Shown here piece by piece: positions 33,621-45,725 of a DNA stretch of 64,000 nucleotides. Every line of letters begins with the position of its first letter. Position 1 is the first letter of the stretch. The notes under the pieces are model-generated. The model was not told the origin of the DNA, did not search any database, and was given only the letters and a program-made list of their open reading frames with translations. This stretch comes from an uncultured Gemmatimonadota bacterium. Its GTDB lineage: Bacteria; JAAXHH01. The stretch spans positions 1,600,001-1,664,000 of the forward strand of contig OX638340.1 of assembly GCA_951812955.1 (NCBI GenBank). Reading direction: 5' to 3'. The translations under genes were made by a program, and so were the position numbers.

Positions 33621-33778
33621 AAAGACGGCGCCGGTAAACTCCCGCCGGGGCAATGGCAGACGGATTTGTTCAGTCCGTTCAAGAGTTCACGCGACGCCGC
33701 TTTTACTTGTCGTACGGCCGCTATGTCGCCGGCCGGTTTATCCCTCGCGGCCAGCCGATTTACACACCTCTCACTCCT

Positions 33779-34639
33779 TCAATCCGCGTAGGCGGCCAAG
33801 CGCCTGCCGTGGCGGGTGTGGCGCAGCTTGTTGATGGCCTTCTGCTTGATCTGGCGGATTCGTTCCCGCGTCAGGCCGAATCGAACCCCGATCTCTTCCA
33901 ACGTGTAGGACCGGTCCGAATTCAGGCCGAAGTAGAGATTCAACACTTCGCTCTCCCGATCGGTCAGGGTCGAAACCGCACGCCGGACCTCGCTCCGCAT
34001 GAGCTCTTCCTGCAATTCTTCGTCCGGCATCTTGCTGTCCTGATCCCGGAGCCGGTCCATCAGCGTGTAGGCATCCTGGTCGCCGATCGGCGCATCCAGG
34101 GATAGCGGCGTGCTCGCCCATTCCGGCAGGGCGGGATGCCGGCCCTTGCCGTAACTCCGCTCCGCGTCTAAACCGGCGCCGGAATCGTCTCCGGCCTGGG
34201 CGCTTTCAGCTTCCCGCTTCTTGATGGTGCGCTCGATCCGGCGCAGTTCCTCTATCTTGTTGACGGGCAATCGGATCAACCGGGCCTGTTCGGCCAGAGC
34301 ATGGAGAATAGCCTGCCGAATCCACCACACGGCGTAGGAGATAAACTTGAATCCCTTCGTCTCATCGAAACGGCGCGCGGCTTTCATCAGGCCGATATTC
34401 CCCTCGCTGATCAGATCGGAAAGGGAGAGACCCTGGTTCTGGTATTGCTTGGCGACCACAACGACGAATCGCAGGTTGGCGTGTACCATGGCCTCGAGGG
34501 CATTCTCGTCGCCATCACGGATTCGGCGGGCCAGTTCCTCCTCATCCGCTGGTGTCAGCAGTTCCGTATCGCCGATCTCTTTCAGGTATACGTCGAGCGA
34601 CTGGTCGTCTCTGATTTGGATCCTCGTGTTCAACTTCAT
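33779..34639 (-). CDS. rpoD: RNA polymerase primary sigma factor, short Bacteroidota-type SigA/RpoD
   Basis: 286 aa. Regions 2-4 are conserved (ANLRFVVVVAKQYQNQGLSLSDLISEGNIGLMKAARRFDETKGFKFISYAVWWIRQ... LTDRESEVLNLYFGL). Length and sequence closely resemble Bacteroides SigA. Confidence 0.8.
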   Translation of the reverse strand: MKLNTRIQIRDDQSLDVYLKEIGDTELLTPADEEELARRIRDGDENALEAMVHANLRFVVVVAKQYQNQGLSLSDLISEGNIGLMKAARRFDETKGFKFISYAVWWIRQAILHALAEQARLIRLPVNKIEELRRIERTIKKREAESAQAGDDSGAGLDAERSYGKGRHPALPEWASTPLSLDAPIGDQDAYTLMDRLRDQDSKMPDEELQEELMRSEVRRAVSTLTDRESEVLNLYFGLNSDRSYTLEEIGVRFGLTRERIRQIKQKAINKLRHTRHGRRLAAYAD

Positions 34640-34694
34640 TCCGAATCACCTCCCTGCCAGTACAGTTGCGTGTGTATTGTTGGCAGCCACATTA

Positions 34695-34725
34695 TGCCAA
34701 TTTGGCATAATGTGCCAATTTGGCA
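34695..34725. promoter_or_regulatory. Tandem palindromic motif TGCCAATTTGGCA-taatg-TGCCAATTTGGCA in the divergent sigA/hsp20 intergenic region (candidate operator)
   Basis: Read directly. Two 13-bp near-perfect palindromes sit 18 bp apart, and the joining segment TTGGCA-N5-TGCCAA is also palindromic. Confidence 0.4.
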
Positions 34726-35010
34726 TATCCTAAATGGTCTTACTAATGTAGTCGGATTATTCAATTTTTTCTCGAGTCTTTTCTAATAATCTAACCGTTT
34801 TGCAATCAATGACTTACACTTCTCGTTTAACATTCTTTCGGATGCACACACTCAAACTGGCACGGTCTTTGCAATTACTATGTTGCGGATACCGATTCTG
34901 CCGCTTCGTCCGCGATTCTTAACTAGTGTACGCCGGCGAAGGCCATTCGGTTCCGAAAGACGGCGAAGAGTTTTCGAAGTGTTGCAGTATACACCTAAAG
35001 GAGGAGCATC

Positions 35011-35433
35011 ATGAGAGCGACAACCATTTTCCCGCTGCCGAACCTGCATAGCCTGCAGACCGAATTGGACGGCATGTTCCGTCAATTCCCGTTCAGGTCC
35101 GATCTCTCGAACCGCCTGTCGCCTCGCGTGGACACCCATGAGACCGAGGACGCCTTCCTGGTCGCGGTGGACCTTCCGGGCGTGGCATCGGACGACGTGG
35201 CGATCAACCTCGACAAGGGTGTGCTGACCGTGAGCGGCGAGCGCAAGAGTCCGTTCGGTCTCAATGGCGACGCAGAGCGGCAATCAGACGGCAAGTTCGA
35301 GCACGCTTTTCCCGTGCCGGACTCGGTAGATACCGATTCGATCGACGCGACGTACAAGGACGGCGTCATGACGATCACGCTGCGGAAGTCGAAGTCATCG
35401 CAGCCCAGGCAGATTCCGATCACCGTCGCCTAG
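35011..35433 (+). CDS. Hsp20/alpha-crystallin family small heat-shock protein
   Basis: ACD domain (AFLVAVDLPGV...VLTVSGER...GVMTITLRK). AAAGGAGG RBS. Confidence 0.9.
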   Translation: MRATTIFPLPNLHSLQTELDGMFRQFPFRSDLSNRLSPRVDTHETEDAFLVAVDLPGVASDDVAINLDKGVLTVSGERKSPFGLNGDAERQSDGKFEHAFPVPDSVDTDSIDATYKDGVMTITLRKSKSSQPRQIPITVA

Positions 35434-35614: not shown

Positions 35615-37597
<1,983 letters not shown>

Positions 37598-42938: not shown

Positions 42939-45725
42939 TCACTCCTTGTACTGATTCACCACAGGCACCACCGGCACGGTCCTCCTTGCCGCTACCCGCA
43001 CCAACGACGCCAGCCCCGTCGGAGCGTCTTCGCCGACGCTGAACTGATCGACGTCCTCATCTGCACTCCCCACCGGCGATGCAATCCCAGTCTCCGCGTT
43101 CAGTGTGTACAATTTAGCGGTCCATCCGCCGGTCATGTACAACACGCCTCTGTGTGAGGTCAGCCCGGTCGGCAGGTCTTCTCCGACACCGAAGTCAGTC
43201 ACGTCGCCAACGGGTGAGGCGGCTCCCGTGGCAGGATTCAATACGTATAGTCGGGCCGAGTTGTAACCGACCATGAACAGATCGCCCCCGTGGGACGCAA
43301 GACCGAAGGGATGGTTTTCGCCGGCCCCGAACTCCACGGCATTACCGACCGGGGCAGCTTTCCCTGTCACGGTATCCAGCGCGTAAAGTCTGGTATTCGT
43401 CCCGCCGGCCATGTACAGCGTTCCGTTGTGGGACGCCAGACCCATGGGCTGCGATTCGCCGACTCCGAATTCCACGGCGTCCCCGACCTGCGTGGCCACG
43501 CCCGTTTCCGGATCCAGCGTATACAGCGCCGCGTTCCATCCTCCCGTCATGTACAAAACGCCGTGATGCGCGGCCAGTCCGTACGGCTGGTACTCGTCGG
43601 CGTCGAATCGAACGGCCTCTCCCACAGGTTTGGCTTCCCCGGTATTCGGATTCAGTCTATACAACTGGTCGTTGCCTTCACCCACCATGAGTAGACCTTC
43701 GACGAAGCCGGCTTCGTCGCACCGCGATCCCATCCATTCATCCAGGCCATCGACCCAGGCTAGCAAAGCTGGGGTGCTCGGTAAGCACAGGCCGTCGTTC
43801 TCGTGAAAGAGAAAATCGGTGACATCGCTTAGACCCGAGAAAGTCTCGGGTACAGTACCTGTGAACTGATTGTCATGGAGATACATCACCTCCAGGTCGT
43901 CGAGTATTCCCAGTTCAGGTGGAACGGGACCGGATAATTCGTTATCGAAAAGGTACAGCGCTTCGAGATCCTGGAGCCGTCCGAATTCGGCAGGAATAGA
44001 CCCGGACAACTGGTTGTTATGGAGATAAAGAAACTCGAGATTGGCGAGTTGACTCAGTTCTACAGGTATCGGTCCTGTTAGCTGGTTTCCATAGAGACTC
44101 AGCAGGCGCAGCTTGGGTTGATCACCAAAGACTGCCGGGATCTCGCCAGAAAGATTGTTGGAGTTGAGGTACAGAATCTCGAGATTGTGGAACTGACCCA
44201 GTTCGGCAGGAATCGGTCCGGACAGCTGATTCTCATCAAGATCCATACGTTCCAGGTTTTCCAGTTGACCCAATTCAACCGGGATCCCTCCTGACAGTTG
44301 GTTCTGCCACAGGTTCAGAAATTCAAGGCTTTCCAGGTTACCCATCTCCGGCGGGATTGAACCGGTCAGCTTGTTCGTATACAGGTGCATTATTTCCAGA
44401 TTATACAACTGCCCCAGTTCGGCGGGTATCGATCCGGTAAGTTCGTTTCGTTGCAGGCTCATGAACTCGAGATTGGCGAGTTGACCCAGTTCCGGCGGGA
44501 TCGAACCGGTCAGATCATTGCCAGCCAGGTCCAGCCGCTTCAGGCTGGTCAATTGCCCAAGGTCTCCGGGGATCGATTCCGACAGGCTGTTGTTACCGAG
44601 ATTCAACACCTCCAGGTAGGCAAGCGAAGCGAGTTCATCTGGAACGGTTCCGGAGATTTCGTTGGCGCCAAGATCAATGATCCTGAGCTCGTCGAGCTGG
44701 GAAAGTGCGACTGGGATGGCGCCCGATACCTGGTTGTGCGCCAAATCCAGTTCCCTCAGCAGGGACAGATTGACGAGGTTTCCGGGCAACCCGCCCGACA
44801 GGTTGTTCGTCCGCAGTTCAAGCCGTATCACCCGTCCGTTGGCGTCGGTCGTCACGCCGTGCCATTCGGTCAGGGGTTCTTCACTCAGCCAGTTCTCGCT
44901 TTCATTCCAGTTCGAACCATCCAACGCATGGTAGAAATCGACCAGCGTGGTACGTTCGCTTTTATCGATGGCCACCGTTACGGGCACGGTGACCGAAACC
45001 TCGCCGGAGGAAACGGTAACGACCGCGGTACCGCTCCCCAGGGCCGTAATCGTGCCGTCGTTGCTCACGGTTGCCACCGACTCGTCGCTGATTACCCATT
45101 TCACCGCCGTGCCATCGATGACCTGGCCGTTTTCGTCGAGAACGGAGGCCTTAAGACTTACTGACTCGCCGGTCGCGGTCAGCGTTACCGACGGAGGTTC
45201 AACCAATATCGTCCGTGCCGACTGGGATACGGAAACCGTAGACTTTCCCTGTTTCTGTCCCACGGTAGCGGTAATATCAGCCGTACCGTTACTGAGCGCG
45301 GTGACGAGTCCTCCACTGGTCACGGATGCAACCGAAGGATTCCGGCTCGACCAGACTACCTCGTGTCCCGAAATCGTCGCGCCGGTCTCGTCCTGCACCT
45401 GTACGGCAAGTTGCAGGGACTGGCCGATCGCAGTCAGCGTAACCGTGTCAGGAGTCACGACAACGGCAGCCGGACCGGATGACCTGGTGGGACCGTCCTT
45501 GCCGCAGGAGGCCAGCGCAAACAGTGCGAGGAAGCAGAAGAGACGGATCCCATTCCTACGGGTGGAATTCCATCGACCGGTGTTCTTTTTGACCCGTAAC
45601 CTGCTGGCAGATGGAGATGACAGCGATTTGCGACCGCAATGACGGTGAAAATGCATATGAGAATACCTTTTAAAGTTTGGTCTATGATTGGCTGCGCGGG
45701 CGAATCGGGCGCTCGATGTGGACAC
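42939..45725 (-). CDS. Large secreted lipoprotein: 3 x Ig-like (Big_2) domains, about 12 plant-type leucine-rich repeats (LxxLxxLxLxxNxLSGxIP), and a C-terminal array of about 46-aa repeats (YxLNPxTGxAxPVGxAVxFGVGExxPxGLASHxGxLYMxGG)
   Basis: Lipobox ...LFALASCGKDG. The start codon is uncertain (Met at aa 1 or 24 of the track ORF, with a long basic N-region). Repeat architecture read directly from the translation. Confidence 0.75.
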   Translation of the reverse strand: MSTSSARFARAANHRPNFKRYSHMHFHRHCGRKSLSSPSASRLRVKKNTGRWNSTRRNGIRLFCFLALFALASCGKDGPTRSSGPAAVVVTPDTVTLTAIGQSLQLAVQVQDETGATISGHEVVWSSRNPSVASVTSGGLVTALSNGTADITATVGQKQGKSTVSVSQSARTILVEPPSVTLTATGESVSLKASVLDENGQVIDGTAVKWVISDESVATVSNDGTITALGSGTAVVTVSSGEVSVTVPVTVAIDKSERTTLVDFYHALDGSNWNESENWLSEEPLTEWHGVTTDANGRVIRLELRTNNLSGGLPGNLVNLSLLRELDLAHNQVSGAIPVALSQLDELRIIDLGANEISGTVPDELASLAYLEVLNLGNNSLSESIPGDLGQLTSLKRLDLAGNDLTGSIPPELGQLANLEFMSLQRNELTGSIPAELGQLYNLEIMHLYTNKLTGSIPPEMGNLESLEFLNLWQNQLSGGIPVELGQLENLERMDLDENQLSGPIPAELGQFHNLEILYLNSNNLSGEIPAVFGDQPKLRLLSLYGNQLTGPIPVELSQLANLEFLYLHNNQLSGSIPAEFGRLQDLEALYLFDNELSGPVPPELGILDDLEVMYLHDNQFTGTVPETFSGLSDVTDFLFHENDGLCLPSTPALLAWVDGLDEWMGSRCDEAGFVEGLLMVGEGNDQLYRLNPNTGEAKPVGEAVRFDADEYQPYGLAAHHGVLYMTGGWNAALYTLDPETGVATQVGDAVEFGVGESQPMGLASHNGTLYMAGGTNTRLYALDTVTGKAAPVGNAVEFGAGENHPFGLASHGGDLFMVGYNSARLYVLNPATGAASPVGDVTDFGVGEDLPTGLTSHRGVLYMTGGWTAKLYTLNAETGIASPVGSADEDVDQFSVGEDAPTGLASLVRVAARRTVPVVPVVNQYKE

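Follow-up and report, generated by a model that had tools for sequence, protein, structure and literature searches.

Textbook heat-shock control in bacteria comprises sigma-32, HrcA/CIRCE, HspR/HAIR, and CtsR. In the CIRCE/HrcA and HAIR/HspR systems, as in the locus described here, palindromes lie upstream of heat-shock operons (there dnaK and groE) and control the heat-shock response. Those palindromes are repressor operators overlapping sigma-70-type promoters, whereas the geometry of the present locus is that of an activator site. Classical sigma-54 promoters cannot fire without an AAA+ activator. The enhancers to which such activators bind, for example the NtrC sites at glnAp2, the PspF sites at pspA (with IHF), and the NifA UAS, are inverted-repeat sites approximately 80–200 bp upstream of the -24/-12 element, often paired and with an IHF-dependent or AT-rich bend in between. 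The present locus shares this layout, with an IHF-like site in an AT-rich spacer as the candidate bend. It differs from the classical cases in that the regulon consists of cytoplasmic chaperones, the activator is putative, and the centres of the two sites are separated by only 18 bp. We know of no enhancer motif that matches the consensus C-TGYCA-N3-TGRCA-G obtained in this study, nor of any relation between these palindromes and the binding site of the HsfB/HsfA pair mentioned below. In Planctomycetota and a large part of the FCB group, reports are limited, to our knowledge, to the presence of sigma-54-type promoters before chaperone genes, with no activator or enhancer.

In Flavobacterium psychrophilum, sigma-54-type "SM4" promoters with mapped transcription start sites precede groESL, dnaK, grpE-dnaJ, htpG, lon, and clpB, and three candidates for the activator were left (PMC9723704). 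A comparative study from 2025 predicted that sigma-54 promoters are enriched in front of GroEL, GroES, IbpA, GrpE, DnaJ, and DnaK in Planctomycetota and Bacteroidota (PMC12316311). In both systems, as in our locus, mapped or predicted -24/-12 promoters of the sigma-54 type immediately precede groESL, dnaK, clpB, or small heat-shock protein genes; both reports give the promoter only, with no enhancer sequence or cognate activator, and do not cover the present lineage. In the heat-shock transcriptome of Rhodopirellula baltica, rpoN itself was not regulated (PMC2754498). In Myxococcus xanthus, the heat-shock gene lonD is activated by HsfB/HsfA, a two-component pair of the NtrC type (Ueki & Inouye, J Biol Chem 277:6170, cited in PMC3892784). 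This pair resembles our model in that a heat-shock gene is activated by a sigma-54-type enhancer-binding response regulator, and differs from it in having a single known target. Our literature search, which left subscription papers mostly outside, returned no description of the enhancer motif or of an activator, and an earlier description is possible. Sigma-54 control of chaperone genes has been published for Flavobacterium and predicted for Planctomycetota, and the cross-phylum enhancer motif is apparently undescribed.

The locus was studied within a 64-kb stretch of DNA, referred to as the window. Its divergent intergenic region, between a sigma factor gene and hsp20-dnaK, contains tandem palindromes which, judged from their sequence context, are likely to serve as the enhancer, or upstream activator sequence, from which a sigma-54-dependent promoter of hsp20-dnaK is activated.

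Architecture of the intergenic region

The features of the region are as follows, in the order of their coordinates.

33779..34639, minus strand: gene for an RpoD-family sigma factor (286 aa); regions 1.2, 2, and 4 found, without region 1.1
34654..34686, minus strand: inverted repeat CTGCCA-N21-TGGCAG, adjoining the Shine-Dalgarno sequence of the sigma gene
34688..34714, no strand assigned: putative distal enhancer site, core TGCCAATTTGGCA at 34695-34707; centre at about -183 relative to the predicted start, 157 bp before TGGCAC
34691..34718, minus strand: sigma-70-type promoter candidate for the sigma gene; -35 TTGGCA, 16 nt, TG-extended -10 CATAAT, 10 of 12 matches
34713..34725, no strand assigned: putative proximal enhancer site TGCCAATTTGGCA; centre at about -165 relative to the predicted start, 139 bp before TGGCAC
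34804..34816, plus strand: IHF-like bending site AATCAATGACTTA, full match to WATCAA-N4-TTR, at about -74
34840..34846, plus strand: GGATGCA block, 12 nt upstream of the -24 element
34858..34873, plus strand: sigma-54 promoter TGGCACGGTCTTTGCA, GG at -25/-24 and GC at -13/-12; predicted start at about 34884
34884..35010, plus strand: predicted hsp20 leader (127 nt) with a conserved 5' stem-loop at about 34886-34955 and the motif TAACGCC...GGTTCCG
35011..35433, plus strand: hsp20, small heat-shock protein (140 aa; Pfam HSP20, 1.6e-19), gene 1 of the regulated unit
35615..37597, plus strand: dnaK (660 aa; NCBIfam DnaK, 1051.7 bits, above the cutoff), gene 2 of the regulated unit

The palindrome TGCCAATTTGGCA was present twice, at 34695-34707 and 34713-34725, with 18 bp from start to start and a 5-bp spacer. 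No exact match was expected in the window (0.00 in 100 dinucleotide shuffles), compared to the two found. The segment joining both copies, TTGGCA-TAATG-TGCCAA, is an inverted repeat as well, and the first copy lies at the centre of a longer, perfect palindrome of 27 bp, CACATTATGCCAA-T-TTGGCATAATGTG (34688-34714). The palindromes are 56–86 bp away from the ATG of the sigma gene and 286–316 bp from that of hsp20 (35011), within an intergenic region of 39% G+C as against 60% for the window. A preliminary description of this DNA had reported the tandem palindromes, their palindromic junction, the low G+C content, and the distances to the flanking genes, and all of these were confirmed in the sequence. 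Its statement that the motif is neither CIRCE nor HAIR was likewise borne out, as CIRCE (TTAGCACTC-N9-GAGTGCTAA) and HAIR (CTTGAGT-N7-ACTCAAG) each had 0 matches in the whole 64-kb window with up to 3 mismatches. It had also noted that the motif does not fit sigma-54 spacing. This holds for the palindromes themselves, which were rejected as a sigma-54 promoter because their spacing is wrong, but a perfect sigma-54 promoter 132 nt downstream had been overlooked.

This promoter, TGGCACGGTCTTTGCA, is the sole zero-mismatch occurrence of TGGCAC-N5-TTGCW in the 64 kb. It is directed at hsp20-dnaK, on the same strand as these genes, and ends 137 nt ahead of the hsp20 ATG. Both its -24/-12 spacing and its orientation to the gene are those of sigma-54 promoters, and the inverted-repeat sites, 139 and 157 bp upstream, fall within the range of approximately 80–200 bp typical of their enhancers. 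The transcription start was predicted from the -12 GC at 34871-34872 and the usual sigma-54 geometry. The combination of palindrome and sigma-54 box 81–141 nt apart occurred once in the window and 0.00 times in shuffles. The spacer between the palindromes and the box, in which the IHF-like site is situated, has a G+C content of 33%.

The hsp20 leader was additionally considered as an RNA thermometer (ROSE, fourU, or similar), and this candidate was rejected. The leader had no relevant Rfam match at E <= 1, its folding stability equalled that of shuffles (z = 0.02), and an alignment fold contained only 2 compensatory pairs. Furthermore, the conserved stem is located about 50 nt upstream of the hsp20 Shine-Dalgarno sequence and does not sequester it.

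Conservation among orthologous loci

Close homologs of the sigma factor were numerous and were found in MAGs labelled Gemmatimonadetes or Zixibacteria. Orthologous loci were fetched at 100, 91, 86, 80, 69–70, and 67% sigma identity. The divergent arrangement of the sigma gene and hsp20-dnaK(-dnaJ) was retained in all of them, down to 67% sigma identity, and the gene order hsp20-dnaK(-dnaJ) was common to every one. Comparative footprinting in relatives had been proposed in the preliminary description; the palindrome was indeed present in the orthologous intergenic regions down to 67% sigma identity. Specifically, all 10 regions compared (100–67%) contained a sigma-54 box with a palindrome 100–135 nt upstream.

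The sigma-54 box was invariant in the close clade and almost unchanged in distant relatives, which have TGGCACGGTGTTTGCG, TGGCACAGGGTTTGCA, TGGCACAGCACTTGCA, and TGGCACGTCGTTTGCA. The core of the IHF-like site, CAA-N4-TT, was invariant in the alignment (A1). GGATGCA was kept in all hsp20 orthologs except L240, and the leader motif TAACGCC...GGTTCCG was shared with L239, L240, and L242.

The proximal site was the best conserved copy of the palindrome. It was identical in L001-L007; L008 has TGCCAAAATGGCA, the L012 clade TGCCGATATGGCA, L240 TGTCAATATGACA, and L242 CTGCCGTTTTGACAG. The palindrome as a whole reads CTCCTGCCGATATGGCAGGAG in the L012 clade and CTGTCGTTTTGACAG in L239. The distal site occurred in relatives as TGCCAATTTGTCA, TGCCATTTTGTCA, or TGCCAAATTGTCA, all within TGYCA-N3-TGRCA, the family consensus that follows from the palindrome variants across the orthologs. 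The half-sites differed as pairs between clades (TGCCA/TGGCA, TGCCG/TGACA, and TGTCA/TGACA). Such symmetric change of the half-sites would be the constraint expected from a dimeric DNA-binding protein.

Recurrence at chaperone promoters in other phyla

One genome per species (185,579 species) was scanned for the pattern TGCCA-N3-TGGCA, 81–141 nt, TGGCAC-N5-TTGC. At least 120 loci were obtained, where a uniform-composition estimate puts the chance yield for the whole collection at approximately 66. Genes within 2.5 kb downstream on the promoter strand were assigned by similarity search, and the other side of the palindrome served as the control. The first recognisable downstream gene encoded a chaperone in 82 of the 120 loci listed, compared to 1 of 120 on the control side. 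The genome-wide search for the motif at chaperone genes that had been suggested earlier, carried out here with a pattern including the sigma-54 box, thus yielded at least 82 chaperone-linked loci. Among the matches listed, these genes were dnaK (27), groEL (24), hsp20 (15), groES (8), a receiver-groES-groEL arrangement (6), and clpB (2). As the sigma-54 box was built into the pattern, it is the chaperone enrichment alone, and not the co-occurrence of palindrome and box, that constitutes independent evidence. The chance of a random 10-base palindrome in a 61-nt window was estimated at approximately 6e-5 per promoter, so random decoration of existing sigma-54 chaperone promoters cannot yield dozens of such loci.

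Approximately 70 of the 82 chaperone loci listed are labelled as Planctomycetota. Stieleria sedimenti and a Kuenenia MAG are among them, as are Blastopirellula marina DSM 3645 and Stieleria marina K23_9, in both of which the enhancer is that of groEL. The remaining ones listed were from Latescibacterota, Poribacteria, Hydrogenedentota, Ignavibacteria, Puniceicoccales, unlabelled MAGs, and a sponge MAG labelled "Gemmatimonadetes". None of the 120 palindrome-plus-box matches listed came from Bacteroidia or Flavobacteriia, in which the enhancer motif may therefore differ.

In the 82 listed promoters, the chaperone-linked sites were mostly 81–120 nt upstream of the box. They extend to a 15-bp palindrome, C-TGCCA-N3-TGGCA-G, with C before TGCCA in 73% and G or C after TGGCA. 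The listed planctomycete promoters mostly carry one site; pairs, where present, usually have a spacing of about 40 bp. The sites in the window, with gaps of 132 and 150 nt, are farther from the box than most matches listed (median 101) and form a tandem at 18 bp.

The full IHF consensus was found in 3 of the 82 cross-phylum chaperone promoters listed, as against 0.35 in shuffles, so the IHF-like element of the window is suggestive and not general to the regulon. Two further sequences were rejected as general features of the regulon: GGATGCA occurred, among these 82 promoters, in L152 alone, which is a relative of the lineage, and the leader motif GGTTCC is lineage-specific.

JGI metagenomes were additionally scanned for the tandem layout alone (TGCCANNTTGNCA, 4–5 nt, TGCCAANNTGGCA), with no sigma-54 box required. 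Three of the 20 stretches found were from the lineage, two preceding hsp20-dnaK (L220, L228) and one preceding clpB (L225), and all three have a sigma-54 box 87–134 nt downstream. The ClpB of L225 is 88% identical to that of L157, where CTGCCATTTTGGCATATCTGCCAATTTGGCAG is followed by TGGCACACGTTTTGCG and then clpB, in the same tandem layout as in the window. The site thus recurs at sigma-54 promoters of a coherent regulon, at clpB within the lineage as well as at the chaperone-linked loci of other phyla. The other tandem-only stretches were long arrays of 18-bp repeats or tandem palindromes in unrelated contigs, and no sigma-54 box was found in them even at one mismatch. Phage contigs are rich in such tandem palindromes. 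As tandem palindromes also occur in phage and unrelated contigs, the palindrome by itself is not diagnostic.

A candidate for the activator was sought by gene neighbourhood. The six frames of the 64-kb window contained no GAFTGA and no RpoN-box motif, and its larger ORFs are housekeeping genes. Among the 82 chaperone loci listed, only two have a gene with GAFTGA nearby. In L181, a gene for an NtrC-type response regulator (REC-AAA+-HTH_8) ends 46 bp before the enhancer; the activator of L164 appears RtcR-like from its sequence. As the two share no more than about 35% identity over the AAA+ core, no consistent candidate emerged. Six of the planctomycete genomes listed, mostly labelled Phycisphaerae, have a stand-alone receiver-domain gene as the first gene of the groES-groEL operon with the sigma-54 box. 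It may be speculated that this gene hints at phosphorelay feedback.

Regulatory model and alternatives

In the proposed mechanism, dimers of a bacterial enhancer-binding protein (AAA+, with a Fis-type helix-turn-helix) would occupy both sites and oligomerise into the active form. Through bending of the IHF-like, AT-rich spacer, this activator would be looped onto the closed RNA polymerase-sigma-54 complex at 34858-34873, and ATP hydrolysis would open the promoter for transcription from about 34884. Given a regulon that contains hsp20, dnaK, groES/EL, and clpB, we infer that the activator would be switched on by heat or protein-folding stress. The sites are read as an enhancer and not as a repressor operator because they are located 139 and 157 bp upstream of a conserved -24/-12 element, with an IHF-like site in between, and because the motif recurs at chaperone genes. 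The preliminary description had regarded the palindromes as an operator for a dimeric regulator. Sites of a dimeric regulator tied to heat-shock genes are indeed very probable; the term operator did not stand, as the geometry is that of an activator site.

A repressor would also bind palindromes as a dimer. A protein similar to HrcA or HspR could repress the sigma gene and/or hsp20-dnaK from these sites, and perfect palindromes in a divergent promoter region beside heat-shock genes, overlapping the sigma-70-like promoter candidate of the window, would suit it. This explanation is nevertheless very improbable. Only one promoter element is conserved, and the sites lie outside it, 139–157 bp away on the upstream side; among the matches listed, the cross-phylum peak at 81–120 nt upstream of sigma-54 boxes corresponds to enhancer geometry, and CIRCE and HAIR are unmatched in the window. 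We assign a small chance to the palindrome being occupied by another factor, with the true sigma-54 enhancer elsewhere. Such a factor might be an architectural protein, or it might activate a second, overlapping promoter of the sigma-70 type. The presence of a sigma-54 activator at the sites is itself deduced, and similar palindromes lacking sigma-54 boxes exist in phage and other contigs. Against this, alignment A1 contains no second conserved inverted repeat between the genes, and position, symmetry, and regulon coherence fit known enhancers. That the copies arose by chance, or are a relic duplication devoid of function, has next to no probability. The distal copy does vary among close relatives, but with zero exact matches expected, symmetric conservation down to 67% sigma identity, and at least 82 chaperone-linked occurrences, this explanation is effectively refuted by conservation and chaperone-linked recurrence.

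A dual use of the palindromes appears unlikely, albeit less remote. The enhancer of hsp20-dnaK would in this case extend into the sigma gene's core promoter, and activator binding would lower or raise sigma transcription and couple both units, as the preliminary description had suggested. The best sigma-70-type candidate on the sigma strand of the window is built from the palindromes (10 of 12 matches), and the divergent layout is kept down to 67% sigma identity. In addition, the spacing between the proximal site and the sigma ATG is kept at about 73–101 bp, as against a variation between 100 and 135 nt in the distance to the sigma-54 box. However, a candidate made of the palindromes was found only in the window, L001, and L002, and no canonical sigma-70-type candidate was detected in L003, L006, L008, L012, L239, L240, and L242, that is, in every ortholog of 91% sigma identity or below, where the promoter consensus may differ from the canonical one. 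The overlap was therefore rejected as a conserved feature and, being confined to the window and near-identical relatives, gives the coupling no comparative support. Moreover, the enhancer is present at clpB (L157, L225) with no recognisable sigma gene beside it, and the same applies to the planctomycete chaperone loci, judging by the gene content seen.

Returning to the enhancer of a sigma-54-dependent hsp20-dnaK promoter, we regard a wider reading as a serious possibility, somewhat short of probable. Under it, C-TGYCA-N3-TGRCA-G would be the enhancer signature of a single, hitherto undescribed family of sigma-54 activators that spans phyla and acts as a master heat-shock regulator. Sigma-54 and this activator, rather than sigma-32, HrcA, or HspR, would then be the main chaperone control in Planctomycetota and in a number of FCB and candidate phyla (this lineage, Latescibacterota, Poribacteria, Hydrogenedentota, and Ignavibacteria), and in this lineage the enhancer might also gate the divergent RpoD-type sigma gene. 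A short motif conserved across phyla makes identification of the activator straightforward and enables the regulon to be delimited computationally. For the window, a speculative operator is replaced by a defined promoter architecture.

The sigma protein scored below all NCBIfam equivalog cutoffs for RpoD, RpoS, and RpoH. Its best PDB matches were to primary SigA (approximately 230 bits), ahead of RpoS (approximately 175 bits) and RpoH (96 bits). Short primary sigma factors occur in Bacteroidetes, and a role of the 286-aa protein as a primary (group 1) sigma factor is plausible from its sequence. The inverted repeat CTGCCA-N21-TGGCAG next to its gene has counterparts in L242 (CTGTCAG-N13-CTGACAG) and, in flipped form, in L239 (TGGCAG-N7-CTGCCA). 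The stem is preserved despite base changes, and the loop differs in length; the repeat is probably a 5' stem-loop of the sigma mRNA.

Conserved elements in the sigma-gene and hsp20 leaders

Inspection of the two leaders and of the region upstream of the sigma-54 box revealed the following conserved elements:

34654-34686, minus strand: inverted repeat CTGCCA-N21-TGGCAG in the sigma-gene leader, directly 5' of the Shine-Dalgarno sequence
34840-34846: GGATGCA, a short block located 12 nt 5' of the -24 element
34886-34955 and 34926-34960: conserved 5' stem CGGAUGCCGG...CUGGUUCCG and motif TAACGCC...GGTTCCG in the hsp20 leader

The pentamer of the sigma-leader repeat is identical to that of the enhancer. 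In relatives the stem is kept, while the loop varies in length and the arms are changed or flipped. Specifically, the counterpart in the distant locus L242 reads CTGTCAG-N13-CTGACAG, and that in L239, likewise from a distant clade, has flipped arms (TGGCAG-N7-CTGCCA). Judged from the sequences, the repeat looks like a conserved 5' stem-loop in the sigma mRNA; alternatively, it possibly provides additional half-sites for the putative activator.

Both the hsp20-leader stem and the TAACGCC...GGTTCCG motif are retained even in the clades with 67-70% sigma identity. The stability of this leader was not unusual, covariation was scant, and a comparison with Rfam gave no match. The conserved structure leaves the Shine-Dalgarno sequence uncovered.

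In the window's lineage, nearly every hsp20 ortholog retains the block GGATGCA. It was found in a single one of the 82 cross-phylum chaperone promoters, L152, which belongs to a relative of that lineage. GGATGCA may be a lineage-specific site for a second factor.

Genes accompanying chaperone operons

In six planctomycete loci (L125, L139, L143, L155, L158, and L172; MAGs labelled Phycisphaerales, Phycisphaerae, Sedimentisphaerales, Pirellulales or Planctomycetota), the groES-groEL operon driven by sigma-54 and the enhancer is led by a gene for a stand-alone receiver (CheY-like) protein of 136-154 aa. The receiver may act as a feedback element in the signalling pathway of the putative activator.

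In the related loci L011-L014, a short ORF (MRRVTYQPFRSLQYEVNPIFEDVFGR*) similar to the Hsp20 N-terminus lies between the sigma-54 box and the full hsp20; it is a leftover of an hsp20 copy that arose by duplication or was frameshifted. A tandem pair of complete hsp20 genes is present in L242 and L243.

Similar palindromes in other settings

In three Desulfobacterales MAGs (L142, L147, and L161), a 291-aa gene, MetF-like in appearance as judged by eye, lies downstream of the same palindrome as in the enhancer, followed by a sigma-54 box. An NtrC-type activator gene, truncated at the contig end, is located on the opposite strand ~1.2 kb upstream in L142. These loci may represent a separate regulon with a similar enhancer.

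In IMG/VR, 84 stretches with tandem TGCCAA-N-TTGNCA palindromes were found, far more than our chance estimate; the viral contigs include L016, L017, L043, L062, and L070. Some of the phage contigs carry a 42-bp unit in 4-6 copies, and the phage palindromes look like a repeated, unrelated operator-like element. In the metagenome contigs L226, L227, L231, and L236, 18-bp units (for example, CATTGCCAAGTTGGCACC) form long arrays, which are unrelated to the enhancer and may be coding hexapeptide repeats.

Other genes of the window and of close relatives

In close relatives, the sigma gene is separated from the thioredoxin-like gene by a gene of 350 aa (L001, 3819-4871; L003, 7087-8139), for which no Pfam match was obtained. 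Compared with these two loci, window positions 33621-33778 are devoid of the gene, and its presence in close relatives and absence here thus constitute an indel polymorphism adjoining the sigma/hsp20-dnaK locus. One further gene is listed:

42939-45725, minus strand: protein of 928 aa that contains leucine-rich repeats as well as bacterial Ig-like (Big_2) domains

This protein, taken with the labelling of relatives as sponge MAGs, fits a host-associated lifestyle.
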